A DNA stretch of 29,541 nucleotides from a bacterium. Lineage in GTDB: Bacteria > Desulfobacterota > Deferrisomatia > Deferrisomatales > Deferrisomataceae. Below, piece after piece: positions 13,889-28,659 of this stretch. The first letter of the stretch is position 1. Each line of letters begins with the position of its first letter. The notes beneath the pieces were generated by a model. The model had not been told where the DNA came from. It did not search any database and worked only from the letters and a program-made list of their open reading frames with translations. The position numbers were made by a program, and so were the translations under genes. The DNA lies in contig JALUTY010000085.1 in the NCBI GenBank assembly GCA_027021615.1, positions 1 to 29,541 of the forward strand. The letters are read 5' to 3'.

Positions 13889-15346
13889 CTAGCCGGCCGA
13901 TCCCCCCGGCCCTCGGCCAGGCACGAAGTCTCGCCGTGACAGACCGTACCGGGCCATCTTGCGCTCGATGGTCCGCCGGGACAGGCCCGAGGCCTGGATC
14001 AGATTCTTGATCCGGCCTCCGAACCTCCGCAGGTTGTGCTCCAGGTACGCCCGTTCGAACTCCTCCACCACCCGCCCCAGCGCCTCGTCGAACGGCAGCT
14101 CCCACTCGGCCGGAGCCCCGGAGGCCTGGGCAAAGGCCTCCGCTCCCATGGCCTCGCGCAGGTGGGACTCGTGGATGATCTTGCCCCGCCCCATCACCAC
14201 GGCGCTCTCGATGATGTTCCGGAGCTCGCGCACGTTGCCGGGGTAGTCGTACCGCTGAAGGGTGCGGGCGGCCCGGGGGTCGATGTCCTCGAACCCCTTC
14301 CCGTAGGCCCGGGCGAACCGCTGGAGGAACGCGTGGGCCAGGAGCAGGATGTCCTCCCGCCGCTCCCGCAGGGGCGGCAGCTCGATGTGTACGACCCGCA
14401 ACCGATAGTAGAGGTCGTTCCGGAACGAGCCGGCCTGTACCGCCTCGTGGAGCCTCCGGTTGGTGGCGGCCACGATTCGCACGTCCACCGGCCTAGGTCG
14501 GGTCTCGCCCACCCGGGTCACGGCCGAGTCCTGGAGCACCCGCAGCAGCTTCACCTGGAGCCGGGGATCCATCTCTCCGATCTCGTCCAGGAACAGGGTG
14601 CCGCAAGAGGCGGCCTCGAAGTAACCCTGGCGGTCCGCATGGGCGCCGGTGAACGCTCCCCGCACGTGGCCGAACAGCTCGGACTCCAGGAGGTTGCCGG
14701 GGATCGCCCCGCAGTTCACCGGCACGAACGGTCCGCCCGCCCGGCGGGACTCGGCGTGGATGGCCCGGGCGACCAGCTCCTTGCCGGTGCCCGACTCCCC
14801 CTCGAGCAGCACGGTGGCATCCGTGCGGGCGGCCCGGCGCACCCGCTCGAACACCCGGAGCATCGCGGGGCTCCGGCCCAGGAGCTCCCCCTGCAGCAAA
14901 GCTGCGGCCTTCTCCCGGCGAAGCGCCCGCACCTCGTCGCGCAGGCCCTTCATCTCGAGCGCCCGGCGCACTACGTGGAGGATCTCCTCCGGTAGGAGGG
15001 GCTTGCGCAGGTAGTCGAAGGCCCCCTCCCGCATCACCTCCACCGCGGAGTCCACCGAGGCGTGGGCTGTGATGACAAGGATCTCGGTTTCGGGCTGGGT
15101 GGACTTGGTCACCCGGACCACGTGCTCCCCCCCCCGGCCGCCCAGCACCAGGTCGGTGATCACCAGGTCGAAGGGGGCTCCCGAAAGGAGAAGCTCTGCC
15201 TGCTCGGCCGAGCTGGCCGTCTCCACGGTATAGCCCTCCCGCTCCAGCACCCGGCGGAGGAGGTCGAGCATGCCGGCCTCGTCGTCCACCACCAGGATCC
15301 GGGGAACGTGTTCCGCGGCCTTCTCAGCCTGTCGGGGATGGGCCAT
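13889..15346 (-). CDS. sigma-54-dependent response regulator (NtrC family)
   Basis: ATG 15346 is preceded by GAGGA. Features: receiver domain (ILVVDDE, DLVITDLVL), AAA+ Walker A GESGTGKE, sigma-54 contact loop GAFTGA, and a C-terminal Fis-type HTH (ASGLSRRTIERKMARYGL). The track start at 15646 is an extension. Confidence 0.9.
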   Translation of the reverse strand: MAHPRQAEKAAEHVPRILVVDDEAGMLDLLRRVLEREGYTVETASSAEQAELLLSGAPFDLVITDLVLGGRGGEHVVRVTKSTQPETEILVITAHASVDSAVEVMREGAFDYLRKPLLPEEILHVVRRALEMKGLRDEVRALRREKAAALLQGELLGRSPAMLRVFERVRRAARTDATVLLEGESGTGKELVARAIHAESRRAGGPFVPVNCGAIPGNLLESELFGHVRGAFTGAHADRQGYFEAASCGTLFLDEIGEMDPRLQVKLLRVLQDSAVTRVGETRPRPVDVRIVAATNRRLHEAVQAGSFRNDLYYRLRVVHIELPPLRERREDILLLAHAFLQRFARAYGKGFEDIDPRAARTLQRYDYPGNVRELRNIIESAVVMGRGKIIHESHLREAMGAEAFAQASGAPAEWELPFDEALGRVVEEFERAYLEHNLRRFGGRIKNLIQASGLSRRTIERKMARYGLSRRDFVPGRGPGGSAG

Positions 15347-15362: not shown

Positions 15363-15390
15363 CCCCGGGGCCCGATCCGGGGCCCCGGGG
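15363..15390 (-). terminator. GC-rich hairpin between the porin gene and the regulator gene (weak terminator or processing site)
   Basis: CCCCGGGGCC (15363-15372) pairs with GGCCCCGGGG (15381-15390). There is no U-tract, so it may only attenuate. Confidence 0.3.
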
Positions 15391-15402: not shown

Positions 15403-16347
15403 TCAGAACACCCACACGACGTTGAGCCAGGTGCTCGATCCCTCGGGCATGTTCTTGCCATCGAACTCCCAAAGTTGCTTGGCCACCACGCTGAACCGTC
15501 CCTGGTTCGGCCACCACTTGAGCCCAGGGCCGATCGCGGCCAGCCGGCTGCGGTCGGAGTTCTCTTTCCCGTCGATCTCGTCGTCGGTGGTCTGCCAATA
15601 GTAGAACCCGTTCACCCCGAACCGCCAGCCCGGCTTGGGGGACCATCCCACGGCCCAGTCGAAGTGGAACTCCTGGCCCGGGTCGAGATCCACCTCTTTT
15701 GTGCTGCCGGCCGGCAGGTACTCATCGTTGGTGGTGTTGAAGTCGTACATGAGCTTCACGGAGAAGTCGAACCCGTTCCACAGGTAGGTGGCTGCTAGCA
15801 CCGGCTCGAACGTCCAGTGGTTTCGCGACAGGAGCTGGGTGGATGCGTCCTCGTTGTCGTAGTTCCCGGTGGGGGCCCAGATGTCCACGGCGAACACGGT
15901 GTGGAAGTTCGGGCCGAAGTGCCACCCCAAAATGAACGGGCTGAAAATGATGTCACCGAGCCCTCCGCTGGACTCATCCACCAGGCTCGTGCCTCCGGCC
16001 TTCACATCCACGTCCGCGGTGTAGAAGGGAATGAAGGCGTGCGCCCCCCACGAGGCGCCCAGGATCTTGTAGGGGCTGACCCAGATGAACCGGGGGATCG
16101 CTGCGAACACGCTCGCGTCGAACTCCACGGGGGTCTTTTTGCCCTCGTTGTCCATGAGCCGGTCCTTGTTGATATAGACGAGATAGTTCTTGAAGTAGAT
16201 CCCGGGCGGGGGCAGGGCGCCCACCACGAAGTCCTCGGCTCCGTTGGGGTAGTGCTGGCCTCCGCCGGCTACGGCGGAGCCCGCGCACAGCGTGAGCCCC
16301 AGGACCAATCCGGTCCACCACCAGGTCATGCCGCGTCCTCTTCTCAT
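15403..16347 (-). CDS. outer-membrane beta-barrel channel, 'MetA-pathway of phenol degradation' (Phenol_MetA_deg-like) family
   Basis: ATG 16347 is preceded by AAGGAGGAAGG. There is a signal peptide (WWWTGLVLGLTLCAGSAVA), an N-terminal HYPNGAEDFVVGALPPPGIYFKNY block as I recall for this family, alternating aromatic/hydrophilic strands and a C-terminal aromatic residue (…VVWVF). Confidence 0.7.
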   Translation of the reverse strand: MRRGRGMTWWWTGLVLGLTLCAGSAVAGGGQHYPNGAEDFVVGALPPPGIYFKNYLVYINKDRLMDNEGKKTPVEFDASVFAAIPRFIWVSPYKILGASWGAHAFIPFYTADVDVKAGGTSLVDESSGGLGDIIFSPFILGWHFGPNFHTVFAVDIWAPTGNYDNEDASTQLLSRNHWTFEPVLAATYLWNGFDFSVKLMYDFNTTNDEYLPAGSTKEVDLDPGQEFHFDWAVGWSPKPGWRFGVNGFYYWQTTDDEIDGKENSDRSRLAAIGPGLKWWPNQGRFSVVAKQLWEFDGKNMPEGSSTWLNVVWVF

Positions 16348-16409
16348 GCGCCTTCCTCCTTTCCTTGCGAAGGGGGAGCTCCGGGCTCCCCGCAGGGGGG
16401 GTGTCAGCC

Positions 16410-17546
16410 CTACACCGGATCGGACCACCAGGGCTCGAACCGGTACGGGATGGGGGTTCCGTCCAGGCGGACCCGGGCGCCGCGGCTGTCCACGGGCACG
16501 GTGACGGAGCAGGTCACGGCCGAGGAGCCCTCCCAGCGTTTCCACTTCGCCCAGACCCCCGGGTCCCGGCTCAGGGCGAACACGGCCGGCCCCACCGAGC
16601 TCATGCCCACGATCTCGGCCCCCTCGTTTCGGAGCCGCTCCATGGTCGTCCAGACCTCCTTGCCCCGGTCGCCGTGGAGCTCGATCTCCGCCCTCTTGGA
16701 ACCTCCCTGGGACAGGTCCCAAAGCACGTCTCCCACGGCCCGGAGGTCGCCGGTGAGGGCGGCCGGCAGGAGGTCCATGAACACCCGGTACACCTTTTCC
16801 CGTGCCGCCTGCTCGTCCGCACGGCGGGCGGTTTGGACCAGAGATCGATACTCTGCCGCGCCCGACGAGACCTCGGGTGCGATCTGGGGCAGAATGAGCA
16901 GGGCCCGCAGGTCCTCGGGCAGGGCGACCCGTGCCAACAGCTCACATCGGTCCGACCCCACCACCAGACCCCCGTGCAGGCCGGCCATGGCGCCCACGTT
17001 GGTCTCGAACCCGGGCACCAGACGGGGCGGAGCCGAGGAGAGCTCCTCGCAGTAGTTGTGGGCGACCAGCTTGCGCAGGTCCCGCAGATCCAGGGGCCGT
17101 CCCAAGGCCTCGTTTAAGGCCAGGGCGGCCGCGGTCAGGGTTGCCACCGACGAGCCGAGCCCCATGTGCCGCCGGCCGTGGTCCCGGGTCTGGATCTCCA
17201 CCCCGCCGGGGTATCCGGTGAGGGTGAGGAAGAGGTGGGCCAGGTGCTGCCCCAGCAGGGGGCGGCTCCCCGTGGATCGAACCCCCGGGGCGTCGATCAG
17301 CGTGACCCGTGCCCGGGAGAACAGCCCCACCGCGAACCCCACCCCGCCGCCGCCGGGGCGGCCGAGGTCAAACCGGGTCATGTCCAACACCAGGGCGTGG
17401 AGCCGGCTCGGCACCTCGGCCTCGCACACCGTCCCGGCAGGTGAGGGCTCCACCGGCCGCAGATTTCCCCCCCACGCCACCGGCCAGACGAACCGGGACG
17501 GATCGCCGGGGGAGAAGGCCAGGGCCTCCAGGGACGGGCCAGTCAA
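16410..17546 (-). CDS. GHMP-kinase-superfamily protein, beta-ribofuranosylaminobenzene-5'-phosphate (beta-RFAP) synthase-like
   Basis: GHMP phosphate-binding motif HMGLGSSVATLTAAALAL. The N-terminal block PSRLHALVLDMTRFDLGRPGGGGVGFAV resembles the PSRLHFGLIDLNG..GR.DGG.G opening I recall for beta-RFAP synthases. Start: TTG 17546 has a perfect AGGAGG 7 nt upstream. The track ATG 17570 has no SD and lies only ~18 nt from the -12 element. Confidence 0.6.
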   Translation of the reverse strand: MTGPSLEALAFSPGDPSRFVWPVAWGGNLRPVEPSPAGTVCEAEVPSRLHALVLDMTRFDLGRPGGGGVGFAVGLFSRARVTLIDAPGVRSTGSRPLLGQHLAHLFLTLTGYPGGVEIQTRDHGRRHMGLGSSVATLTAAALALNEALGRPLDLRDLRKLVAHNYCEELSSAPPRLVPGFETNVGAMAGLHGGLVVGSDRCELLARVALPEDLRALLILPQIAPEVSSGAAEYRSLVQTARRADEQAAREKVYRVFMDLLPAALTGDLRAVGDVLWDLSQGGSKRAEIELHGDRGKEVWTTMERLRNEGAEIVGMSSVGPAVFALSRDPGVWAKWKRWEGSSAVTCSVTVPVDSRGARVRLDGTPIPYRFEPWWSDPV

Positions 17547-17587
17547 CAGGGCGCCTCCTGGACCATACATGGTTTTGTTCTGTAGTA

Positions 17588-17603
17588 TTCAAACATCGGG
17601 CCA
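17588..17603 (-). promoter_or_regulatory. candidate sigma-54 (-24/-12) promoter
   Basis: The minus strand reads TGGCCCGATGTTTGAA, against consensus TGGCAC-N5-TTGC. GG and TTG are correctly spaced; only the C of the -12 GC is replaced by A. It lies ~30 nt upstream of the AGGAGG of the GHMP-like gene, and a sigma-54 activator is encoded in the same gene string. Confidence 0.5.
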
Positions 17604-17782
17604 TCTCGTGGGGGGACGCAGGTGCATTCGGGGGGAGACGGCCGGGCGGCCCGGAGCCGATCCGTTCGGCGCCTCGTCAACTGCCGTTGAACCCGCTTGT
17701 TGGCTGCCTCTTGAGCGGATCTCACCCAGAGGGGCGGCCGTGGCGGTCGATCATAACATGAGAAATCAAACATAGGTAGGAA

Positions 17783-18895
17783 ATGACGATAAAAGGCCTG
17801 AAATACGACATTGGAGACGCACTGTGGGAAGGGGTCCCGTGCGCGGCGTTCGTAACCGACACTCGAGGACGGGTCGTGGGGTGGAACCCGGCTGCAGAGA
17901 TTCTGACCGGACGTCTGGCGCCGGATGTGGAGGGACGGCCGTGGCAGGAGGCCCTTGGTCGGCCGGACCCGGGGGGGGGGGCAGCTGACTCCCGGGGGAA
18001 CGCTTGGGTGGACACGGTGTGCGACGCCACCCGGGCGGACGGACGCCCCATGCGTCTCCGTCTCCGGTCCCGGCCCGTACGGGACCCGGCGGGCCGGCCC
18101 GCTGGCCGGCTGTGGCTGGCCACCGACCACTCCCTGCGGGACGCGGTGGACCGGAAGCTGGTTCAGTACGAGCGGCTGGCCACCTTGGGGGAGCTGGCCG
18201 CGTCCGTGGTGCACGAGGTGGGCAACCCCGTGTCGGTGATCCTGGGGTTCGCGGCGCTCCTCCAGAGCGAGACCGAGACCGACCCCGACGGATCGATCCG
18301 TCGCCGCATCTACGAAGAGGCACACCGATGCCGCACCCTGATCGACCAGCTGCTGGGCTACGCCCGCTCCGCAACGAGGGGAAGCGCGCCCGCGCCGGTG
18401 CGGCTGGCCGTGGTGGTGGGCGAGACCCTGCCCCTGGTGCGGCACCGCCTGCAGCGAGCCCAGGTGTCGGTGGACAGCCGTTTGCCCTCCGACCTGCCCT
18501 CCGTGTGGGGGGATGCGTCGGAGCTGAAGCAGGTCGTGCTGAACCTTTTGCTGAATGCGGCGGACGTGACGCCCCGCGGAGGGATGATCGAGGTTGTGGG
18601 CGACGTGGTGGAGCGGCAGGAGGAGAGAGGGGGGGACTCCCTTCTTGACCCGGTGCTGCGCCTGGAGCGCCAGACGCGGGTGAGGTTGCGGGTGGGAGAC
18701 CGGGGCCCCGGGCTCCGCGGCCAGGACCCGGAACGGTTCTTCGGACCGTTCGTGACCACCAAGGAGAAGGGCGGGGGATTGGGGCTCACCGTGTGCCGCC
18801 GCATCGTGGAGGCGTGGGGGGGGACCATCCGGCTCGAAGAGCGCGAGGGGGGAGGAGCCTGGGCCGTGGTGGAGCTTCCCGCACACGCCGGGTAA
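17783..18895 (+). CDS. cytoplasmic PAS-domain sensor histidine kinase (NtrB-like)
   Basis: No TM segments. The N-terminus is PAS-like (AAFVTDTRGRVVGWNPAAEILTG). H-box is ELAASVVHEVGNP, N-box LLLNAADV, G-boxes DRGPGL and GGGLGL. It is divergent from the GHMP-like gene. Confidence 0.85.
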   Translation: MTIKGLKYDIGDALWEGVPCAAFVTDTRGRVVGWNPAAEILTGRLAPDVEGRPWQEALGRPDPGGGAADSRGNAWVDTVCDATRADGRPMRLRLRSRPVRDPAGRPAGRLWLATDHSLRDAVDRKLVQYERLATLGELAASVVHEVGNPVSVILGFAALLQSETETDPDGSIRRRIYEEAHRCRTLIDQLLGYARSATRGSAPAPVRLAVVVGETLPLVRHRLQRAQVSVDSRLPSDLPSVWGDASELKQVVLNLLLNAADVTPRGGMIEVVGDVVERQEERGGDSLLDPVLRLERQTRVRLRVGDRGPGLRGQDPERFFGPFVTTKEKGGGLGLTVCRRIVEAWGGTIRLEEREGGGAWAVVELPAHAG

Positions 18896-18904
18896 CCCCT
18901 CCTC

Positions 18905-19188
18905 ATACCAAGTTGCGTTCAAACCAAGATCCGTCCGGGGGCCAGGGCAGGGGGCCTGGTTCCGGCCGTGCGGGAGTGCAGCATCCGCCTCACGCGGCCC
19001 CCGACACTCAGCCCGAGTGTCCCATGAACGGTAGAAAAGCGAACGTTGGCAATGCATTTCGGGTCACCGGCAGAGCGGGTATCGGCTGAGTGCCGGGGGC
19101 CGCGACTGTCGGAGCCACGCCCGGCGCTCCACCAGGCCCCTTGCCCCGCCGGTTCAGGGGTCTGATGGCCTTGAACGCAACTTGGTAT
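18905..19188. repeat. nested palindromic element R3 (~284 bp) filling a convergent gene gap
   Basis: Three concentric stems were read directly. Outer: 18905-18922 ATACCAAGTTGCGTTCAA with 19171-19188 TTGAACGCAACTTGGTAT (18/18). Middle: 18943-18960 CAGGGCAGGGGGCCTGGT with 19131-19148. Inner: 18996-19013 GGCCCCCGACACTCAGCC with 19084-19101 GGCTGAGTGCCGGGGGCC. The right arm overlaps the stop codon of the 19188 gene. Confidence 0.7.
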
Positions 19189-19736
19189 CAGCCCCCGCCG
19201 TAAAGGAGCTCTCGCAGCCGCCGAACCACCCGGGGCACCGCCTCCAGGTGCCGGATGGGGCACGGCAGGGTCCAGTCCTGCCAGGGGCCCAGGAGCTCGG
19301 CATAGGGATCTGCGCAGGCCCGGGAGAGCCGGAGGGGCACCTGCGGGAAATGCCGCTCTAGGGTCTGTCGCAGGCACGCCACCAGCCGGTCCCGCTCGGT
19401 CTCTCCCTCTGCATGGAGGACCAGGGCCGAGGTCCCGTACCGATCCCGCCGACCCCCCAGCTTGCCGTGGAGGTAGAGGTCCGGGTGGTCCTCGGCCAGC
19501 TGGCCGAGGATCTCCATGCAGGTTGTCTCGTCCGGGGCCGCGGCCACCACCTTCCAGCAGTCCCAGGCATGGGGCAGGTCGATCTCCGTCCGGTCCGTCT
19601 TCAGTTGGTCCAGCAGCCCGGCGAGGCACGGCAGGCACCGCTCGTGGATTCGGCGCTTCGTGCGTTCCATTCGGGGGTGGGTCTCGAAGCTCCACCACCC
19701 CTCCCGGGACACCCGGTGCCCGAAATGGACCTCCAT
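19188..19736 (-). CDS. hypothetical protein (182 aa), Cys/Trp/His-rich, no recognised domain
   Basis: Strong G/C at codon position 3 throughout. Start ATG 19736 (MEVHFGH) avoids overlap with the 61-aa gene but has no clear SD; ATG 19811 is an alternative. Contains CLPC and several isolated Cys/His. Confidence 0.55.
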   Translation of the reverse strand: MEVHFGHRVSREGWWSFETHPRMERTKRRIHERCLPCLAGLLDQLKTDRTEIDLPHAWDCWKVVAAAPDETTCMEILGQLAEDHPDLYLHGKLGGRRDRYGTSALVLHAEGETERDRLVACLRQTLERHFPQVPLRLSRACADPYAELLGPWQDWTLPCPIRHLEAVPRVVRRLRELLYGGG

Positions 19737-19759: not shown

Positions 19760-19945
19760 CTACGGCGTTTTCGTCCCAGCAGGCGGCTCGAAATGGGCCC
19801 GGAGCACCCACAGGGTCCCCTCCATCCGGCGCACGTTCCGCTCCACCGCCGGGATGCCGTCCCCGGCCCGCTCCAGCTCCCTCAACGCCGAGGCCACCCG
19901 GTCCAACGCCTCGGCCACCTCACGGATCCGATCGTCCGGAGCCAT
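19760..19945 (-). CDS. hypothetical 61-aa helical protein, translationally coupled to the CoA ligase
   Basis: The ATG shares its A with the ligase stop (TGATG) and is preceded by AAGGAGGGAGG inside the ligase 3' end. Codon position 3 is G/C-rich. It is hidden in the track inside a longer out-of-frame ORF (19760..20368). Confidence 0.6.
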   Translation of the reverse strand: MAPDDRIREVAEALDRVASALRELERAGDGIPAVERNVRRMEGTLWVLRAHFEPPAGTKTP

Positions 19946-21288
19946 CACGCGCCTCCCTCCTTGCGAAGATCGTGGAACCTCCGGGCCTTCACCTGGTAGC
20001 GCGGCAGGCTGCCGTAGGGCTGGGGCTGGATGTCGAAGTTGAGCTGGGTCTTCCACCGGAGCCGGCTGGCCAGCTCCTTGAGCAGGCCGTCCCGGTCCGG
20101 CGGGGCCAGCCCGTCGGGCAGCTCCACCTTGAGGGTGATGTGATCCAGGTCGCCGCGCTTCTCCACGAAGATCTCGAACTCGCCGTCCAGCTCCTCGAAC
20201 GATCGGACCACCTCCTCCACGGTGACCGGGGAGAACAGCACCCCCTTCACCTTGGTGATGTGGTCCACCCGGCCGTGGACCCCCCCTTCGAGGATGCGCC
20301 AGGTGCGGCCGCATTCGCATCCGTCCGCGGCCCACATGGACACGTCCTTGGTGTCGAACCGCACGCACGGCTGGGCCCTCCGGTCGAAGGCGGTGATCAC
20401 GATCCGTCCCGGCACGCCGGGCCGGGTCACCGGGCGGTCGGAGTCAAGCTCCAGGAGCTCCACCAGGAACATGGACTCGATCACGTGCTGGCCCCCGGGC
20501 TGGTGCCGGCACTCGAACCCCCATGCGCCGACCTCGGTGGCGCCCACGTGGTCGTAGACGGGGCATCCCCAGGCGTCCTGCATGCGCTTCTTTGTCGTCG
20601 GAACCGAGGCCCCGGGCTCCCCGGCACAGGTGATCCGCCGGATGCCCCACTCCCGGGGGTCGGCGCCCAGGTCCTTGCGCGCGGTCTCGGCCATGCCCAG
20701 CACGTAGGTGGGGGTGGCCATGAAAGCGTTGGTCTTGAGCTCGCGCATCTTGAGCAGCCGCTCCCGGGTGCCCAGAACGCCCCCGGGGACCACCTCGCAC
20801 CCGAGCCGCTCGGCCCCGTAGTGGGCGGTCCAGAAGGCGATGAACACGTGGTAGCCGAAGGGGAAGAACACCCGGTCGGTGGGGCGGTACCCCTGGGCCC
20901 ACAGGATCGTGGCCCAGAGCTCCGAGAACCACTCCCAGTCGGCCCAGGTGTCGGGCTGGTACACGGGGGTGCCGGTGGTGCCCGAGGTCTGATGGTACTC
21001 GGTCACCTCCTCCAGGGGCACGCACAGGGTGTCGCCGTAGGGAAACGGGTCCGTGCCCTGGCACCGGTAGTCGTCCTTGGTCACCAGGGGCACCTTGGCC
21101 AGGTCGTCCCAGGTCCGCACGTCCTCCGGACGAAGGCCGGCCTCGTCGTACTTGCGGCGGTACATGGGGCTTCGCTCGTACACCCAGGCGAGCACCCGCC
21201 GGAACTTGGCCAGCTGGATCTCCCGGAGCCGGTCCGGGTCCAGGGTCTCGGTGATCGGGTTCCAGTACTCGGTCTCCGGGTACGGCAT
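19945..21288 (-). CDS. phenylacetate-CoA ligase (PaaK)-family aryl/acyl-CoA ligase
   Basis: 447 aa. N-terminal ...EIQLAKFRRVLAWVYERSPMYRRKY, AMP-binding core YHQTSGTTGTP, ATPTY, CAGEPG and VKG..FSP blocks are typical of the PaaK/F390-synthetase branch. ATG 21288 is preceded by GGAGAG. Confidence 0.85.
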   Translation of the reverse strand: MPYPETEYWNPITETLDPDRLREIQLAKFRRVLAWVYERSPMYRRKYDEAGLRPEDVRTWDDLAKVPLVTKDDYRCQGTDPFPYGDTLCVPLEEVTEYHQTSGTTGTPVYQPDTWADWEWFSELWATILWAQGYRPTDRVFFPFGYHVFIAFWTAHYGAERLGCEVVPGGVLGTRERLLKMRELKTNAFMATPTYVLGMAETARKDLGADPREWGIRRITCAGEPGASVPTTKKRMQDAWGCPVYDHVGATEVGAWGFECRHQPGGQHVIESMFLVELLELDSDRPVTRPGVPGRIVITAFDRRAQPCVRFDTKDVSMWAADGCECGRTWRILEGGVHGRVDHITKVKGVLFSPVTVEEVVRSFEELDGEFEIFVEKRGDLDHITLKVELPDGLAPPDRDGLLKELASRLRWKTQLNFDIQPQPYGSLPRYQVKARRFHDLRKEGGA

Positions 21289-21303
21289 GGTTTCTCTCCG
21301 AGG

Positions 21304-21351
21304 CTAGGAAGCTGGAAGGCTAAAAGGCTAGAAGGCTAGGAAGCTGGAAAG
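21304..21351. repeat. 8-nt-phased CTAG micro-array (6 units, purine-rich on + strand)
   Basis: CTAGGAAG|CTGGAAGG|CTAAAAGG|CTAGAAGG|CTAGGAAG|CTGGAAAG, starting 16 nt upstream of the ligase ATG. Confidence 0.8.
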
Positions 21352-21397
21352 CCAAAGACCTCCGCGATCTTTAAGCGCTGCGCCGTCACCACAAGTC

Positions 21398-21492
21398 GGG
21401 GATGCCTGGGGCCTGGTGGAGCGCCGGGCGTGGCTCCTACAGTCGCTGCATTCGGCACTCACGCACGGCCGAAACCAGGCCCCAGGCATCCC
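21398..21492. repeat. R3 core hairpin copy (~95 bp)
   Basis: GGGGATGCCTGGGGCCTGGT (21398-21417) pairs with ACCAGGCCCCAGGCATCCC (21474-21492). The interior (GGAGCGCCGGGCGTGGCTCCTACAGTCGC...) is the reverse complement of 19102-19140 and 18951-18980, i.e. the R3 middle stem without the ~125-nt inner insert. Confidence 0.65.
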
Positions 21493-21751
21493 TATTGACC
21501 CGGCGGACAAACAGGCGCTATCGCTCACTGCTCGGACCTGCCGGAGAGCCGGGCGCGGCCCCTTAACTCGCCGCGCAGCGCCTCCGACGCTCGGATCGCG
21601 AAATGGTTCGGATTCCACCGAGTTGTCATGAAACCAGCTCTTCGGTCCCGTGCCTGCGCGGCGAATCCCATGCCCGGCTTCGCGCCCGGCCTTTAGGCAG
21701 GTCCCTTGCCCCGCCCTCCGAGGTGCCGCGCTTATTTTGCCGCCAGGTTAA

Positions 21752-22025
21752 TACTAACTACCAACGGAACTATTGTCAGATCCCCGGCGTTCACAAGGGA
21801 ACCAGCGGGTGGGGGGCTGGTGGAGAGCCGGGCGCGGCCCCTTACGTCGCCGCGCCCTCACCCGGCCTGGATCGCTCTGTAAGTTCAGGAACTTCCGCCA
21901 CCAGCGCCCCGGCCTACCGGGCTGACAACGGCATGCGAAGGCGCGGCGAAGGGGATGCCGCACTCGCGCCCGGCCGGAACCAGTCCCCCACCCGCGTCCG
22001 GCAATACCTTCGTAGGCCTTAGTAA
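21752..22025. mobile_element. MITE-like foldback element R2, copy b (inverted relative to copy a)
   Basis: The reverse complement aligns end to end with 1517-1789, with the same termini (TACTAA...TTAGTA) and the same central GGAAGTTCCTGAACTT palindrome. Confidence 0.6.
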
Positions 22026-22073
22026 GCTTTGGCGCGGCTGGGGAGTTCCCGGCGGGCCGAAGGCCCGAAGGGC

Positions 22074-22670
22074 TCATCCTCCCGCCGACAGCACCTTCAC
22101 GTCGCTGCCCTTCCAGCGGCGGAACAGGTTGTGCTCGATGCGGAGCTGGTCGAGCACTTTGCCCACGGTCTGATCCACGATCTCCTCCACCGTGCGGGGG
22201 CGGTGGTAGAAGGCCACCATAGGGGGCAGGATCACCGCCCCGATGTCTGCGCACCGGCGGAGGATGTCCAGGTGCCCCTTGTGCAACGGGGTCTCCCGGA
22301 ACAGCAGGACCAGGGGCCGGCGCTCCTTCAGGGTCACGTCGGCCGCCCGCACCAGCAGGTTGTCATTGTACGAGTTGGAGATGGCCGAGGCGGTCTTCAC
22401 CGAGCAGGGGGCCACCACCATGCCCTCGGTCAGGAACGATCCGCTGGCAATGGCCGCTCCCACGTCCTCGGGGTCGTAGACCTTGGAGGCCAGGGCCTCC
22501 ACCCGCTCCGGGGTCCAGTCGCTCTCGAGCCGGATGTTGCGCCGGGCGGCCTTGGAGAGGATCAGATGGGTCTCCACCCCGAGCTCCCGGAGCACCTGCA
22601 AGAGCCGGATGCCGTACTGGGGGCCGGTGGCCCCGGAGATGCCAACCACCAATCTACGGGGTACGTTCAT
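22074..22670 (-). CDS. ubiX: flavin prenyltransferase UbiX (prFMN synthase)
   Basis: 198 aa. RLVVGISGATGPQYGIRLL, MVVAPCSVKT and RPLVLLFRETPLH blocks are present. The ATG overlaps the stop of the upstream UbiD paralogue (ATGA). Confidence 0.9.
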   Translation of the reverse strand: MNVPRRLVVGISGATGPQYGIRLLQVLRELGVETHLILSKAARRNIRLESDWTPERVEALASKVYDPEDVGAAIASGSFLTEGMVVAPCSVKTASAISNSYNDNLLVRAADVTLKERRPLVLLFRETPLHKGHLDILRRCADIGAVILPPMVAFYHRPRTVEEIVDQTVGKVLDQLRIEHNLFRRWKGSDVKVLSAGG

Positions 22671-24010
22671 CGCTCTCTCCTCGTGAGGAACCCAAGGGCC
22701 CGTTCCAATGCCGGCCCAGGGACTCGGGCCCGCCGTCCGGGTACCCGATGGTACCCGGTGGCGTCCACCCCTGCCTTGGCCGTGACCGCGTGCTCGTGGG
22801 CCGAAGGGTCGATGGGCTGGCCCTGGAGACCCGGCAGGATCACCCAGTCCCGGTCGGGCTGGGTCCGGCTCACCACGGACCACTCCACGTCCCAGGGGTC
22901 TTCCACGTCCACGTCCTCGGCCACGGCCACCACCTGCTTCACCCGGGTCTCGCGCAGCAGGATCTTCAGGAATGCCCGGATCCGGTCCGGCGTTGTCGGA
23001 GCGAGCCGGACCACCACCGAGGCGCCGTACGAGAACGGGACGGCCCGGACCGCCGTGACCTCGACCGGCACAGACCCGAGCAGGGCCTGCACGGAGGCCT
23101 CGGCCACCATGCCTAGGAGCCGGTCGGCCTCCCACCCGGTGGGGAGGAGGGCGTGGTACAGGGGGCTCTGCCGGCACCGGACCGATCTCACCACGAAGGT
23201 GGGGGTGGCGGAAAACGATACGTGGTACCCGCTGATCTCCCCGAACGGGCCGTCCGGGCGCTCGTCCGAGGGGTCGATCTCGCCCTCCAGCAGGATCTCG
23301 GCCTCGGCCGGCACCGGGATACCGGTGTGGGGGGCGCTCACCAGGTCCACGGGCTCCCCCCGCAGGGCGCCGGCCGCGGCCATCTTGTCCTCGCCGGCGC
23401 GCCCCTTGAGGGCTGCGGCGAGAAAGGTGAGCGGCTCGTGCCCCAGGGTCACAGCGGCCGGCAGGGGCCGGCCCGTCGCCTTGGCCTCGGCATACACCTC
23501 GGACAGGGGCGGGTTCAGCAGGGCCACGCCGAACCGGTCCGGCCCGCGCTGCTCCATGCGGTGGACGCCCCGGGCCACGGTGCCGGTGCGGGGATCCACG
23601 GCCGAGACCACGGCCGTAGTCAGGAACGCCCCGGAGTCGCCCTCGTAGTGGGTGAGCACGGGCAGAAGCTCCCCGATCTCTGCCGGCTCGATCGACCGTT
23701 CGAGCACGGGGCCGTCGGCCCCGGTCCGCGGCGGGACCTCGGCGGTGCACCGCTCCACGAACGCGCGGCCGGCCCGCTCCGGGGGCACGCCCAGGCCATG
23801 GGCCAGGACCTCGTCGTGGCACAGCACGTTCCCCACCACCGGCAGCGGGCCCCGGTCGGTCCGGCCCACGTGCACGGCTCGATGCTGCCGGGACGCCACG
23901 TGGAGCAGGGCCGCCACCTCGTGCCGCACCGACACGGGGCCCCCCACCTCCGCCAGGCGACCACAGGCCTGGAGGAACGCCACCACATCGGTCAGGTCGC
24001 GGAACGCCAC
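22667..24010 (-). CDS. UbiD-family protein, divergent third paralogue (447 aa)
   Basis: GTG 24010 is preceded by AGGGGAG, 13 nt after the stop of the 84-aa gene. N-terminus AFRDLTDVVAFLQACGRL is UbiD-like. The PFGE.SGY block is present as DGPFGEISGY. The N-x-G-x-Y-R signature is degenerate (ARGVHR). The track start at 24145 overlaps the upstream gene. Confidence 0.8.
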   Translation of the reverse strand: MAFRDLTDVVAFLQACGRLAEVGGPVSVRHEVAALLHVASRQHRAVHVGRTDRGPLPVVGNVLCHDEVLAHGLGVPPERAGRAFVERCTAEVPPRTGADGPVLERSIEPAEIGELLPVLTHYEGDSGAFLTTAVVSAVDPRTGTVARGVHRMEQRGPDRFGVALLNPPLSEVYAEAKATGRPLPAAVTLGHEPLTFLAAALKGRAGEDKMAAAGALRGEPVDLVSAPHTGIPVPAEAEILLEGEIDPSDERPDGPFGEISGYHVSFSATPTFVVRSVRCRQSPLYHALLPTGWEADRLLGMVAEASVQALLGSVPVEVTAVRAVPFSYGASVVVRLAPTTPDRIRAFLKILLRETRVKQVVAVAEDVDVEDPWDVEWSVVSRTQPDRDWVILPGLQGQPIDPSAHEHAVTAKAGVDATGYHRVPGRRARVPGPALERALGFLTRRER

Positions 24011-24023
24011 GATCCGTGCTCCC

Positions 24024-24278
24024 CTACCGCCACGCTTCCGGGATGGGGTCCACCTCCTCCACCACCCGGATCGACCAGGGCTCGCCCACCCATTGCCCGC
24101 GGCCCAGGCGGGGCCACAGCCTTTCCGGGTACTTGGAGGGCTCACTCGACACCTTGGCCCGGACCACCTGGCACCGGTACTTGGCCCGGCCCGGGGTGAG
24201 GTCCCGGATCACCAGGCGGATCTCCTCGTCCTGGGGGACCTCCTGCAGGTTCTCGAAGAACGCGTCGTACTCAGCCAT
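24024..24278 (-). CDS. 84-aa protein, candidate small (gamma-type) subunit of the UbiD carboxylase
   Basis: ATG 24278 is preceded by CAAGGAG. Codon position 3 is G/C-rich. Size (~10 kDa) and position between UbiD paralogues match the small subunit of phenylphosphate carboxylase. There are no Cys pairs, so it is unlike the BsdD/VdcD zinc-ribbon subunits. Confidence 0.6.
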   Translation of the reverse strand: MAEYDAFFENLQEVPQDEEIRLVIRDLTPGRAKYRCQVVRAKVSSEPSKYPERLWPRLGRGQWVGEPWSIRVVEEVDPIPEAWR

Positions 24279-24295
24279 GGTTCGGACTCCTTGCC

Positions 24296-24525
24296 GGTAA
24301 CTTCGGTCGTCGGTCGTCAGTCTGGGCCTTCGGCCATATCAGGGGCCAGAATTCAGAAGTCAGTAGACAGGGAGAAGGATCTTCGGTGCGTCGAGAGGAT
24401 CCCCCCGGGAAACCGAACTGCTTTTCGGGATTTCCTGTCTTCTGTCCGCTGAAATCTGTCTCCTGAACCGTCGGCCCCATGCCTCCGGCGTGAAGGCTTC
24501 GGACCAACAAACGTTACCCTTCCCC
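24296..24525. repeat. repeat family R1, copy b, filling the ubiD-small gene intercistronic gap
   Basis: Aligns with the reverse complement of 1270-1520. Shared blocks: GGTAACTTCGGTCGTCGGTCGTCAGTC, ATCAGGGGCCAGAA, TCTGTCCGCTGAAATCTGTCTCCTGAACCG and GGACCAACAAACGTTACCCTTCCCC. Confidence 0.7.
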
Positions 24526-24556
24526 GTTGTAGGGCTCCGCAGGGGCCTCACGGGGC

Positions 24557-26005
24557 TTATTCGGAAAACCCGTATGCCTTCCAGTTGGCCAGCACCTTGT
24601 CCCGGATCTCCTGGGGGTAGACCGTGTCGAACGCCACGAGGATCGGGATGTCGGAGGGCTGCCAGTCCCGCGGGAACAGGCAGTCGAACAGCACCTTGGC
24701 GCCCTTGCCCATGCGGCGCTCGGCCGGGGTGGCAAACGGGTTCAAAGGAGTGCCCACGTCCCCTTCGTACACGTGGATGCCGTTGACCGGATGGCATCGG
24801 GTGCTCAGGGCGTGGATCACCTGGTTCTTGTTGTAGATGTCGGTGTTCTCGTCCACCACCACCACCATGTGGAACCAGGGGCCCAGCTTGCTGCCGAACA
24901 CCAGGTTGGCGATCTGGCGGGCGATGCCGGTGTACGCGTGACGGGTGCCGATCACCACCAGGTGGTGGGTGGACTCGGGCCACATGTACACGCCGGTGAT
25001 CGGGATGCCCTGGCTCCGCAGGAGCTTCTCCATCTCGAGGCTCAGGGAGAACGACCGCAGGAGCTGGCCCTCGTCCGTGGGCACGCCCATGTTCGACACG
25101 GTGAGGATCGGGTTGTCCCGGAAGGTGATCGCCCGGATCCGGTACACGGTGCGCCGTTCCCGGGGCGAGGTGCGGTAGCCGGTGTACTCCCCGAAGGGGG
25201 CCTCCTCGAGCCAGACGCCCGGCAGCACCTCGCCCTCGATGATGATCTCGGCGTGGGCCGGCACCAGCAGGTCGGAGGTCTCGCACTTCACCACCTCCAC
25301 CGCCTCGCCCATGAGGAGGCTCGCGAACTCGTCCTCCGGGATCGGGGAGGGCGCGCAGGCGGCCACGCCGGACAGCGGGTCCATGCCGATCACCGTGGCG
25401 AACGGCATGGGCTGGTTCCGGGGCACGTACTTGTTGAAGAACATCTTGCCCATGTCGGAGAACGGCAGCACCGGGCCCACCATGGTCTTCTCGTCGAACA
25501 CCATCTGGCGGTACATGCCCCAGTTCACCTCTCCGGTGTCCGGGTCCTTGGCCACCACCATGTGCCAGGTGGCCAGGTACCGGCCGCCGTCGCCGTCGTG
25601 GACCATGGGCGCGGGCAGGTTGAACAGGTTGGCGTCGTCGCCCGTCCACACGTTCTGCTTGCACGGGGCCCGGCTGCGGTCCACCACCCTGGGCTTGAGG
25701 GGCTCGCCCCGCTCGGTGCGCTCCACATAGGCCCTGCCGATCTCCGGGATCGGGGTGGCGGCCGGAAGCCCCAGGGACACCGCCAGCTTCCGGTAGGTGG
25801 CCAGGGGCGCGCCCAGGGCCTCGAAGCCGGGGTAGTCCTTGATCTTCTTGAAGTGGGGCGACGGGCCCTGGAGCTCGCACACCCGCCGGACGATGGCCCC
25901 GAGCTCCAGGTCCCAGTCCACCTCGGGCTCGACCGTGACCAGGTCTCCGGTGGCCCGCAGGGCCTCGATGAACTCGCGGTTGTCCTTGTAGTAGCGGTAC
26001 GCCAT
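24557..26005 (-). CDS. UbiD-family (de)carboxylase subunit, phenylphosphate-carboxylase alpha/beta-like (482 aa)
   Basis: ATG 26005 is preceded by AAAGGGAG. UbiD signatures NWGMYR, EAPFGEYTGY and HMVVVVDENTDIYN are present. Confidence 0.85.
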   Translation of the reverse strand: MAYRYYKDNREFIEALRATGDLVTVEPEVDWDLELGAIVRRVCELQGPSPHFKKIKDYPGFEALGAPLATYRKLAVSLGLPAATPIPEIGRAYVERTERGEPLKPRVVDRSRAPCKQNVWTGDDANLFNLPAPMVHDGDGGRYLATWHMVVAKDPDTGEVNWGMYRQMVFDEKTMVGPVLPFSDMGKMFFNKYVPRNQPMPFATVIGMDPLSGVAACAPSPIPEDEFASLLMGEAVEVVKCETSDLLVPAHAEIIIEGEVLPGVWLEEAPFGEYTGYRTSPRERRTVYRIRAITFRDNPILTVSNMGVPTDEGQLLRSFSLSLEMEKLLRSQGIPITGVYMWPESTHHLVVIGTRHAYTGIARQIANLVFGSKLGPWFHMVVVVDENTDIYNKNQVIHALSTRCHPVNGIHVYEGDVGTPLNPFATPAERRMGKGAKVLFDCLFPRDWQPSDIPILVAFDTVYPQEIRDKVLANWKAYGFSE

Positions 26006-26144
26006 GGGGATCTCCCTTTCATGTAACTTCCGCTAGAAGGCTGGAATGCCAGGAGGCTAGAAGGCTTGGAATCCTGCCGGATTCCCATGCGTTCTAGGAA
26101 TCACCACGCCTCTTTGTCTCCACCTCACGGTCCGGAAAGCATGG
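26006..26144 (-). promoter_or_regulatory. conserved leader R4, copy a (contains CTAG micro-array 26033-26072)
   Basis: About 75-80% identical by eye to 26761-26898. Both abut a start codon and share CATGTAACTTCCGCTAG next to the RBS, plus CCGGATTCCC, TTCTAGG.ATCACCA.GCCTC and CTCCACCTCAC.GTCCGG. Confidence 0.55.
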
Positions 26145-26217
26145 TCTAGTTTCTAGTCTCTAGACGGCCCCGCAGGGGCCTGATGGAGCTTTCGTCGTGG
26201 AGCCGGGCTCTGTGGCC

Positions 26218-26760
26218 TCAGCCCCAGCCCATGTTCGCGATCTTCTCCACCAGGGCGCCCCATCGGCCCTGGGCCCTGAGGATGAACTCGGCCAGCTCCC
26301 GCAGCATGCCCTCGCCGCCGGCCCTGCGGGTGATGAGATGGGCCGCGTCCCGGACCTCGGGGACCCCGTTGGCCGGGCACACCGCGAATCCCACCCGGCG
26401 CATGGCGCCCAGGTCGATGATCTCGTCGCCCACGTAGCACACCTCGTCGGGGCCGATGCCGATCTCGGCCATGATCTCCTCCATCTTGGCCCACTTCTCC
26501 TTGGCCGCGTACACCCGCTTGATGCCCACCTCCTGGGCCCGGGCGAACACGATTTTGGACTTGCGGGTGAGCAGCGCCACCTCGATGCCCGACATCATCA
26601 GCACGTTGGCCCCGAACCCGTCGTCGTGGTGGAACACCTGGAACTTCACGCCGTCCTCGTTGAACAGGACCATGCCGTTCGTGAGCACGCCGTGGACGTC
26701 CAGGACCACCAACTTCACGCGCTTGGCCCGCTCGATCGCATCCATCATGTCGTAGGCCAT
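26218..26760 (-). CDS. KdsC-type HAD-superfamily protein, phenylphosphate-carboxylase delta-subunit-like (180 aa)
   Basis: ATG 26760 is preceded by AAAGGAGG. It is collinear with KdsC (LVVLDVHGVLTNG..., DGFG, GDEIIDLGAM, AGGEGMLRE). Motif I reads DVHG instead of DVDG. Confidence 0.85.
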   Translation of the reverse strand: MAYDMMDAIERAKRVKLVVLDVHGVLTNGMVLFNEDGVKFQVFHHDDGFGANVLMMSGIEVALLTRKSKIVFARAQEVGIKRVYAAKEKWAKMEEIMAEIGIGPDEVCYVGDEIIDLGAMRRVGFAVCPANGVPEVRDAAHLITRRAGGEGMLRELAEFILRAQGRWGALVEKIANMGWG

Positions 26761-26898
26761 GGAATGCCTCCTTTCATGTAACTTCCGCTAGGACGCTGGG
26801 AGGCTGGGACGTTAGGAGGTTTGAAAACCTCCCGGATTCCCGCGCCTTCTAGGCATCACCATGCCTCCTCGCCTCCACCTCACAGTCCGGGGGCATGG
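26761..26898 (-). promoter_or_regulatory. conserved leader R4, copy b (contains CTAG micro-array 26788-26819)
   Basis: See 26006-26144. The minus-strand sense contains hairpins AGGCATGGTGATGCCT and GGAGGTTTTCAAACCTCC, and several CCTCC anti-SD-like motifs upstream of the AAAGGAGG RBS. Confidence 0.55.
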
Positions 26899-27052
26899 GG
26901 ATCAGGAGTCAGAGGACAGACGTCAGTGGACAGGGCGTGGTCCCACGACGCCGCTTTGGCCCCAGTGTCTTTGCCCCTCTTCTGGCTCCTGTCCCCTGAA
27001 ACCCATGCCCCGCCGCCGATGGCCCCAGGACCACCAAGCGTTACCTTTCCTC
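26886..27052. repeat. repeat family R1, copy c (partial)
   Basis: CCGGGGGCATGGGGATCAGGAGTCAGAGGACAGACGTCAGTGGACAGGGCGTGGTCCCACGACGCCGCTTTGGCC...GGACCACCAAGCGTTACC aligns closely with the reverse complement of 1281-1450. Confidence 0.7.
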
Positions 27053-27099
27053 GTACCGGGCCTCGCAGGGGGACTGGAGGGGCTTTTCAGTAAGCTCTC

Positions 27100-28515: not shown

Positions 28516-28659
28516 GTCTCCCTCCTTCGCAAAAAATCGTTTGATGAGTTGCGACTCTAGCGCCCGGTGGAGGCGGGGTCCAATCATATGTTTTGCGTTG
28601 ATGTATAAGGTGGGGTTATGCTCTTGGTCGCAGGTCGTCACCCGCCACCCGTTACTGCC

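Follow-up and report, generated by a model that had tools for sequence, protein, structure and literature searches.

What does a GHMP-fold enzyme do beside the genes for anaerobic phenol catabolism? The question is raised by a contig of 29,541 nucleotides (JALUTY010000085.1 of GenBank assembly GCA_027021615.1; the whole of this stretch is hereafter called the window) from a bacterium of the family Deferrisomataceae, in which a gene for a 378-residue protein of the GHMP kinase superfamily lies next to a phenylphosphate carboxylase (ppc) locus. A preliminary description, made from the letters of the window, likened this protein to beta-ribofuranosylaminobenzene-5'-phosphate (beta-RFAP) synthase and offered three roles for it: replacement of a missing phenylphosphate synthase, consumption of the carboxylase product, or production of dimethylallyl phosphate for UbiX. 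The strongest pattern at the locus, which that description overlooked, is that the partners of the GHMP gene which never vary are a histidine kinase and a response regulator; the carboxylase is not among them. Given these fixed neighbors, the gene looks like part of a sensing unit rather than a stand-in pathway enzyme. The reading that we favor, although we hold it with less than even confidence, is that the gene encodes an active enzyme that serves the kinase and the regulator, either by converting an aromatic effector to an anionic derivative or by reporting that the effector is bound.

Because the G+C content of the window is about 70%, genes were called by third-position G+C content together with domain searches. 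The GHMP gene and its immediate neighbors are as follows.

19188 to 19730, minus strand: conserved protein of 180 amino acids, function unassigned, tail-to-tail with the kinase gene
17783 to 18895, plus strand: cytoplasmic PAS-HisKA-HATPase histidine kinase, divergent from the GHMP gene (Pfam)
16410 to 17546, minus strand: GHMP-fold protein, 378 amino acids (open reading frame and Pfam PF00288)
15403 to 16347, minus strand: Phenol_MetA_deg-type outer-membrane channel (porin), 314 amino acids (Pfam, E 9e-66)
13889 to 15346, minus strand: NtrC-type sigma-54 response regulator with REC, AAA+ (carrying GAFTGA) and HTH_8 domains (Pfam)

This layout agrees with the preliminary description, which had reported the 378-residue protein with its GLGSS motif, the porin and GAFTGA-bearing regulator that follow it, and the divergent PAS kinase. 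All Pfam domains of the kinase and the regulator scored above their cut-offs, which places both proteins in a two-component system; in their translations we read HEVGNP as the H-box of the kinase and GAFTGA in the regulator. The GHMP reading frame starts at TTG with the ribosome-binding site AGGAGG ahead of it, and an alternative ATG lies at 17570. The gap between the GHMP gene and the porin gene is 62 nucleotides and has a ribosome-binding site and no predicted terminator, so that co-transcription of the two genes in the window is plausible. Separately, the stretch that separates the porin stop from the start of the regulator contains a perfect G+C hairpin of 11 bp (15363 to 15390, minus strand). 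No U-run follows it, and shuffled sequence folds with an energy at least as good; the hairpin may act as a partial terminator or stabilize the mRNA.

Gene context was surveyed with a tblastn panel of neighboring proteins over 95 loci, in which the family splits into three context types, here called clades A, B and C. Clade A, which includes the window, has at least 49% identity and Deferrisomatales-type loci; homologues with 49 to 96% identity occur in Deferrisoma, Deferrisomatales and other Thermodesulfobacteriota metagenome-assembled genomes. The divergent PAS kinase flanks the GHMP gene in all 14 distinct clade-A loci, and the sigma-54 regulator comes after it in 13 of them, the contig of the remaining locus (L019) ending first. 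Only the window and its closest relatives (L001/L002 and L015) have a porin gene interposed between those of the GHMP protein and the regulator. The order of this cassette is kept, attached to phenol-catabolic operons, in homologues down to 49% identity.

The catabolic neighbors vary. Most clade-A loci carry ppcB-D-A-(C)-UbiD-UbiX, and the linkage to UbiD on which the preliminary description had placed weight thus recurs in relatives, together with ppc genes. Two loci (L010 and L017) have instead of ppc a UPF0261 protein, a split phosphoenolpyruvate (PEP)-synthase-like PpsA/PpsB pair (3020 to 4702 and 4761 to 5792 in L010) and a CoA ligase, and neither UbiX nor UbiD lies within 10 kb of their cassettes. 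In a further genome (GCA_054680655.1), ppc and the cassette share a contig, and a pps-like operon under LysR control lies on a different one. Because the GHMP gene coexists with pps-like genes, which in L010 and L017 lie directly beside it, the view of it as a stand-in for a missing phenylphosphate synthase is not supported. With it goes the idea of Deferrisoma-type ppc loci that have no phenol-activating enzyme. Throughout the clade-A survey, the GHMP gene is in the operon of the regulator and never in the ppc or pps operon. The GHMP and regulator genes overlap by 11 nucleotides in L011 and are about 1 nucleotide apart in L095, which suggests coupled, low-level expression of the kind seen in regulatory partners.

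What kind of protein, then, accompanies this two-component system? It contains PSRLHALVLDMTRFDLGRPGGGGVG and RRHMGLGSS and belongs to the GHMP kinase superfamily, passing the Pfam model GHMP_kinases_N (PF00288) with 29.2 bits against a cut-off of 22.3. Its top NCBIfam matches are the beta-RFAP synthase models NF040726 and TIGR00144, which it matches far below cut-off (58.1 against 328 bits and 44.3 against 113.5 bits) and over residues 201 to 328 only, that is, the C-terminal third. The cut-offs of homoserine kinase models were also missed (NF002288, 35.6 against 194 bits; TIGR00191, 23.6 against 168 bits), and the best match, as the preliminary description had anticipated, is not to an ordinary kinase. 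In searches of the Protein Data Bank (PDB) with a profile of the family, the closest solved structure was ForT, a formycin C-glycoside synthase (E 7e-14), and homoserine kinase came second (E 1.8e-10 to 4P52). An AlphaFold (AF2) model made with 33 homologues as input has a predicted local distance difference test score (pLDDT) of 91. Foldseek ranked ForT first against this model (template-modeling scores of 0.64 to 0.76), with homoserine kinase, IspE and mevalonate-pathway enzymes nearly equal to it; more than 200 PDB matches had E <= 0.001, and the best 50 of them were all GHMP-fold enzymes. Neither the NCBIfam nor the PDB profile searches gave any special likeness to isoprenoid GHMP kinases.

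The likeness to beta-RFAP synthase therefore stands as far as nearest described relatives are concerned, by profile, PDB and Foldseek searches, and fails at the cut-offs for membership. Because those cut-offs, the 5'-phosphate ligands and the carboxylate loop discussed next all fail, the protein is not a member of the RFAP-synthase family as defined. It sits in an undescribed clade between kinases, such as homoserine kinase, and the C-glycoside synthases beta-RFAP synthase and ForT. Databases name proteins of this family "beta-RFAP synthase", "sugar kinase" or "GHMP kinase", and the present placement corrects this tempting misannotation.

Structures and mutants of ForT (PDB 6YQQ, 8AOZ and 8AP0; PMC8183095, PMC9832568) provide a guide to the active site. 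Three ForT residues are essential for binding phosphoribosyl pyrophosphate (PRPP), including T106 and R135, both of which contact the 5'-phosphate; the pyrophosphate site is formed by R19 and the H99-S104 loop, E211 is the catalytic glutamate, K263 is the lysine, and a loop (residues 157 to 181) with S174 binds the leaving carboxylate (PMC8183095, PMC9832568). We compared the GHMP protein with these residues and with true RFAP synthases by sequence alignment only. R48, H127-S132, E232 and K284 correspond to R19, the H99-S104 loop, E211 and K263, and are invariant among 88 members. The ForT aromatic-pocket residues S21, K263, Q266 and E211 align with H50, K284, E287 and E232, and at the first three of these positions RFAP synthases have the residues found here. 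In contrast, T106 is replaced by V or I at position 134 and R135 by a variable residue (P, K, R or A), neither of which is conserved in the family, and T138 is replaced by an invariant E181. The motifs of RFAP synthases that align with the 5'-phosphate ligands of ForT (GTQ and GRGGTSG) are not found here. The carboxylate loop is absent from the whole family, at a place where RFAP synthases have an insertion of 20 to 25 residues.

The family has in addition an inserted segment, NYCEE...FETNVGA, that aligns with EGE...HADNVAP of homoserine kinase, including the position of the Mg-binding glutamate; RFAP synthase and ForT lack CEE...FETNVGA. This acidic, kinase-like motif is a hint that ATP may be the donor. 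Because some 30 residues are invariant in the 88 sequences across all three clades (among them R48, H50, D55, GGGG, H127-G-x-G-S, E167, E168, E181, T182, E232, K284, E287 and MSSxGP), the active site counts as intact and the gene is predicted to encode a catalytically competent enzyme and not a decayed domain. Clade A is distinguished only by N183, which is G in clades B and C, and by relaxed constraint at positions 285 and 289.

These comparisons bear directly on whether the protein is a true RFAP/RHP synthase that performs decarboxylative C-ribosylation of 4-hydroxybenzoate or 4-aminobenzoate with PRPP, with release of CO2 and PPi, and so consumes the product of the carboxylase. The top NCBIfam, PDB-profile and Foldseek matches, to beta-RFAP synthase and ForT, favor this chemistry, as do the conserved equivalents of R19, the GHMP loop, E211 and K263, and 4-hydroxybenzoate is indeed the product of the adjacent pathway. 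However, the model scores reach 58 and 44 bits where 328 and 113.5 are required, two of the three residues that ForT needs to bind PRPP have no conserved counterpart, and the loop with S174 is missing. Moreover, as the preliminary description had noted, methanopterin (H4MPT) genes are not seen among the window genes scanned, and to drain the product of the pathway would be futile in a catabolic setting. We consider it very unlikely that the enzyme uses 4-hydroxybenzoate in the manner of an RFAP synthase.

A second possibility is an ATP-dependent aryl-hydroxyl (phenol) kinase, which would spend one ATP on each phenylphosphate and so provide a pilot route, or an alternative one, in parallel with phenylphosphate synthase. 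Together with the porin, this kinase would be the regulated payload of the two-component system. The GHMP fold and its phosphate loop fit such an enzyme, and so do the segment shared with homoserine kinase, the closeness of homoserine kinase, IspE and other kinases to ForT in Foldseek, the loss of both 5'-phosphate ligands, the operon shared in Deferrisoma with an uptake channel, and the presence of N183 in the phenol-linked clade with G in the other two. But the gene coexists with pps-like operons and even adjoins them, it always lies in the operon of the regulator and not in those of ppc or pps, and the fusions and neighbors of the family, described below, indicate nucleotide or phosphoribosyl chemistry. 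We know of no biochemical precedent for a phenol kinase of the GHMP type. On balance a phenol kinase seems unlikely, although likelier than the other alternatives to the favored reading.

Proximity to UbiX and to three UbiD paralogues raises the further question of whether the enzyme serves the cofactor of the carboxylase. The locus beside the cassette is a bona fide ppc cluster, as the preliminary description had assumed. PpcA (alpha subunit) scored 688.5 bits against an equivalog cut-off of 564.6 in NCBIfam, and PpcB (beta subunit) 697.3 against 469; the gamma and delta subunits match their models, yet score under the cut-offs. The genes, from domain and NCBIfam searches (Pfam and NCBIfam for the ligase), are these.

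22062 to 28641, minus strand: phenylphosphate carboxylase locus, ppcB-ppcD-ppcA-ppcC-third UbiD-UbiX
27100 to 28641, minus strand: ppcB
26218 to 26760, minus strand: ppcD-like HAD protein
24557 to 26005, minus strand: ppcA
24024 to 24278, minus strand: ppcC
22667 to 24145, minus strand: third UbiD
about 22062 to 22670, minus strand: UbiX
19945 to 21288, minus strand: PaaK-type aryl-CoA ligase, presumed to be 4-hydroxybenzoate-CoA ligase

That the GHMP enzyme supplies UbiD or UbiX, for example as a dimethylallyl phosphate kinase or by making another precursor of prenylated flavin mononucleotide (prFMN), is suggested by its position near UbiX and the UbiD genes in most clade-A loci and by the recruitment of cofactor genes to other ppc loci. 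One such locus (L095) has a NUDIX hydrolase, and another (L097) has a HAD hydrolase with a CTP-dependent riboflavin kinase and RibBA; these proteins may supply the cofactor there. Against this, the cassettes of L010 and L017 adjoin pps genes and a CoA ligase, and their 10-kb surroundings contain neither UbiX nor UbiD, whereas L097 is a ppc-type locus with UbiD and UbiX and no GHMP gene in its 10-kb flanks. Clades B and C showed no linkage to UbiX in the 95-locus survey, and a special likeness to isoprenoid kinases is wanting in the searches described above. Nothing specific supports the dimethylallyl phosphate kinase of the preliminary description, and we give a role in cofactor supply almost no credence.

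The 180-residue protein has four invariant cysteines (in RCLPC, DCWK and SRAC), and its gene is tail-to-tail with the kinase gene in all clade-A loci but two, being absent from L011 and separated from the kinase gene in L095 by the NUDIX gene. It has no Pfam match, and its AF2 model (pLDDT 92.5) has no fold match in the PDB. In L097 its gene adjoins the HAD hydrolase and riboflavin kinase genes, with ppc, UbiX and RibBA nearby, and this setting suggests that the protein takes part in handling the flavin or prFMN cofactor.

How far does the link with phenol extend through the family? An exhaustive profile search found 166 representatives at 50% identity (E <= 1e-30), and a scan of species-representative genomes found 239 relatives. 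Clade B (37 to 43% identity) occurs in Desulfobulbaceae, Desulfosarcina, Desulfonema, Desulfococcus, Desulfallas, Pelotomaculum and other Bacillota. Its GHMP gene is the first of an operon with genes for a PRAI-like protein, a Zn-dehydrogenase and an LsrF/ADH-synthase-type aldolase (for example, L004, 10001 to 13785, and L024 to L044), which is present in about 20 genomes of sulfate reducers and Firmicutes. In one clade-B locus (L039), a kinase and a sigma-54 regulator stand beside this otherwise ordinary operon, and in another (L041) an enhancer-binding protein does. Clade C (32 to 43% identity) occurs in Methanomicrobiales, Methanothrix and Methanocorpusculum, where the GHMP gene is paired with a DUF2148 gene (L005, L007 and L045 to L094). 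We note that the methanogen DUF2148-GHMP pair represents a second RFAP-synthase-like paralogue, and that a CBS-DHH pyrophosphatase gene lies ahead of the pair in four archaeal loci (L005 to L008).

Some family members are fused to other domains, namely to adenylate kinase in five cases (P0216, P0239, P0244, P0246 and P0286), to the Ham1 nucleoside triphosphate pyrophosphatase (P0052) and to a PrnB-like domain (P0309 and P0328). These fusions and the PRAI neighbor are a hint that the family carries out phosphoribosyl or nucleotide chemistry and has a nucleotide-like product. It is conceivable that the enzyme belongs to an unrelated small-molecule pathway that clades B and C also possess, for example ribosyl or deoxyribosyl salvage, and merely travels with two-component genes. 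That the active site is almost identical in homologues from methanogens and sulfate reducers that are not linked to phenol agrees with this idea, as does the clade-B operon, which is of a kinase/isomerase/dehydrogenase/aldolase type. But the strict gene order and the attachment to phenol operons persist down to 49% identity, the PRAI, dehydrogenase and aldolase genes are all lost in clade A, and changes at N183, R285 and E289 are peculiar to that clade. We regard an unrelated pathway as distinctly unlikely.

If the enzyme belongs to a regulatory cassette, its promoters and those of the catabolic operons are of interest. Two elements lie between the GHMP and kinase genes (17547 to 17782).

17603 to 17588, minus strand: -24/-12-like motif TGGCCCGATGTTTGAA, ending 42 nucleotides upstream of the TTG start
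17559 to 17588, plus strand: sigma-70-like promoter toward the kinase gene (-35 TGGACC, 18-nucleotide spacer, -10 TAGTAT), read from sequences

The preliminary description had taken TGGCCCGATGTTTGAA for a -24/-12 promoter of the GHMP gene. The motif is where it was said to be and has GG at -24; it has GA instead of GC at -12, however, and thus two mismatches to the consensus, and two such matches were found in the window against 3.2 expected, which is not above chance. We treat it as a candidate promoter at most. Six clade-A upstream regions were compared (the window, L001, L003, L009, L010 and L011); similar elements are upstream of the GHMP gene in L001 and L010, and none in L003, L009 and L011. 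A canonical sigma-54 promoter (at least 10 of 12 consensus positions) was found nowhere in the window. The promoter facing the kinase gene abuts TGGCCCGATGTTTGAA in the opposite direction and is better conserved, its equivalent (TGGACC or TGGAAC, 17 nucleotides, TACAGT or TAGAGT) being kept in most clade-A loci. MAFFT alignment of the regions upstream of the GHMP gene gave nothing usable, and they were aligned by anchoring on a recurrent word. A bipartite motif (GACTGTAG, about 19 nucleotides, GGTCCAGG) was at first credited to the GHMP gene, as its promoter or operator; this reading was dropped because the opposite strand of the motif is the sigma-70-like kinase promoter, with the architecture of the ppcB promoter.

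Canonical sigma-54 promoters (10 to 11 of 12 positions; for example, TGGCACAAGGATTGCT) do occur about 90 to 150 nucleotides ahead of the CoA-ligase operon in four other loci (L010 at 5894, L017 at 747, L096 at 15683 and L012 at 15243). These promoters make it likely that in those loci the regulator acts on the CoA-ligase operon. The ppc operon looks to be LysR-controlled rather than sigma-54-controlled. In the divergent ppcB-lysR region (28516 to 28659), a LysR-type box (CATAACC...CCTTATACATC) adjoins a sigma-70-like ppcB promoter (TTGGACC, 17 nucleotides, TAGAGT), and both are conserved in L001, L003, L009 and L095. Since the ppc and pps operons come with divergent LysR regulators of their own, and with sigma-70-like promoters and LysR-type boxes, the cassette is not their obvious sole controller.

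In L010 (1653 to 5792), L012 and L096, the pps-like operon opens with the UPF0261 protein, in place of the CBS-type PpsC of Thauera, and continues with conserved unknown genes, the CoA ligase, an open reading frame of 60 codons and a porin.

We return to the reading that we favor, in which the GHMP enzyme would be the third fixed component of a Deferrisomatales signaling cassette. This cassette, composed of the divergent cytoplasmic PAS kinase, the GHMP enzyme, an optional porin and the sigma-54 regulator, lies where anaerobic phenol-catabolic operons end. As to substrates, donor, interaction with the kinase or regulator, and regulon, we infer the following. ATP, as phosphoryl donor, or PRPP, as phosphoribosyl donor, would be held in the conserved GHMP loop, and phenol or 4-hydroxybenzoate would be converted to an anionic derivative trapped inside the cell. 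This derivative, or else the substrate-bound enzyme, would be read by the two-component system, so that the protein would act as an inducer-forming or "trigger" enzyme. The regulator would then switch on sigma-54 promoters, among them the one ahead of the neighboring 4-hydroxybenzoate-CoA-ligase operon and perhaps the one from which the regulator itself is expressed.

Several points weigh against this proposal. The PAS domain might sense the effector unaided, and communication of the GHMP enzyme with the kinase or regulator is proposed from gene order. The gene may simply be a payload of the cassette, that is, a tightly regulated enzyme; the regulators beside the clade-B operon in L039 and L041 suggest that such a relationship of regulated enzyme is ancestral. 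Near-total conservation of the active site among methanogens, sulfate reducers and Deferrisomatales points to a common and possibly non-aromatic substrate. The identity of the donor is ambiguous, with the kinase-like CEE...FET on one side and the adenylate kinase and Ham1 fusions and PRAI, which speak for phosphoribosyl or nucleotide chemistry, on the other. Finally, TGGCCCGATGTTTGAA provides no firm sigma-54 promoter for the GHMP gene.

A more specific version of the proposal, which we think improbable, is that the product is a "phenol nucleotide", in which phenol or 4-hydroxybenzoate is joined to the ribose 5-phosphate of PRPP, or phosphorylated, and that this cell-trapped compound, not phenol, is the ligand of the PAS kinase. 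If so, a membrane-permeant toxic aromatic would be sensed through an enzyme-generated second messenger, and the GHMP family found across methanogens and sulfate reducers would have its first assigned function. More generally, the favored reading would assign a function to a GHMP clade that has gone unstudied, would bring an enzyme-dependent step into phenolic sensing in strict anaerobes, and would show how the C-glycoside synthases of the RFAP-synthase/ForT type relate to ordinary GHMP kinases. In the papers searched, nothing was found that links Deferrisoma with phenylphosphate or phenylphosphate carboxylase with GHMP proteins, nor anything on DUF2148, COG1907 or COG4739. The same papers held no mention of such a GHMP gene in a phenol cluster, and on that basis its occurrence in phenol cassettes is unreported. 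The clade is previously undescribed, and the three-clade family is unstudied.

Other features of the window are as follows. About 800 bp of non-coding DNA separate UbiX from the CoA ligase (21289 to 22061) and contain a 39-nucleotide repeat in three copies, every one of which lies within a long inverted repeat (for example, with perfect 19-nucleotide arms at 21399 to 21417 and 21474 to 21492). An 8-nucleotide tandem repeat (AGGCTAGA-like; 21301 to 21356) is immediately upstream of the CoA-ligase start. A 139-nucleotide direct repeat with 79% identity (25997 to 26135 and 26752 to 26890) forms the leaders of ppcA and ppcD, which therefore have a duplicated upstream region in common. An Rfam scan of the window gave no match. 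Elsewhere in the window are genes for RecG, UDP-GlcNAc 2-epimerase, thioredoxins, an extracytoplasmic function (ECF) sigma factor and NrdD/NrdG.

Among known proteins, beta-RFAP/RHP synthase (MJ1427 type) shares with the GHMP protein the fold, PSRLH..D, the GGxG block, the H-x-GLG loop, G-[SF]-K-x-x-E and MSSxGP. The GHMP protein differs in lacking the RFAP motif GRGGTSGIG, whose R and T are the PRPP 5'-phosphate contacts of ForT, and the long loop after GGH, in having the NYCEE segment, an N-terminal extension of about 40 residues and a C-terminal tail, and in its surroundings among the window genes, which are not those of H4MPT synthesis. ForT has 18% identity; it shares the equivalents of R19, the H99 loop, E211 and K263, and it differs where T106, R135 and T138 are V/I, variable and E here and by its S174 loop. 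The likeness to homoserine kinase (ThrB) lies in the GLGSS loop followed in the central region by E-x-E and then x-D/T-N-V-x-x, whereas the N-terminal motif and the C-terminal half of the GHMP protein resemble RFAP synthase.

At the level of whole systems, an accessory gene beside a kinase and a sigma-54 regulator also occurs in what we take to be a comparable layout in Escherichia coli (GlrK/QseE, YfhG/QseG, GlrR/QseF), although QseG is a lipoprotein and not an enzyme. The enzyme subunits DhaK and DhaL report their substrate to DhaR, a regulator of the enhancer-binding type that stands outside two-component systems. Neither the QseG nor the Dha system is homologous to the GHMP cassette, and the likeness is one of layout or analogy. 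PpsABC and PheR of Aromatoleum share its physiological setting, that is, anaerobic activation of phenol under sigma-54 control; Pps is of the PEP-synthase type, unrelated to GHMP proteins, and pps-like genes coexist with the GHMP gene. PheR, a known phenol sensor, is a one-component regulator (PMC10715001), whereas the GHMP cassette would combine a two-component system with an enzyme.

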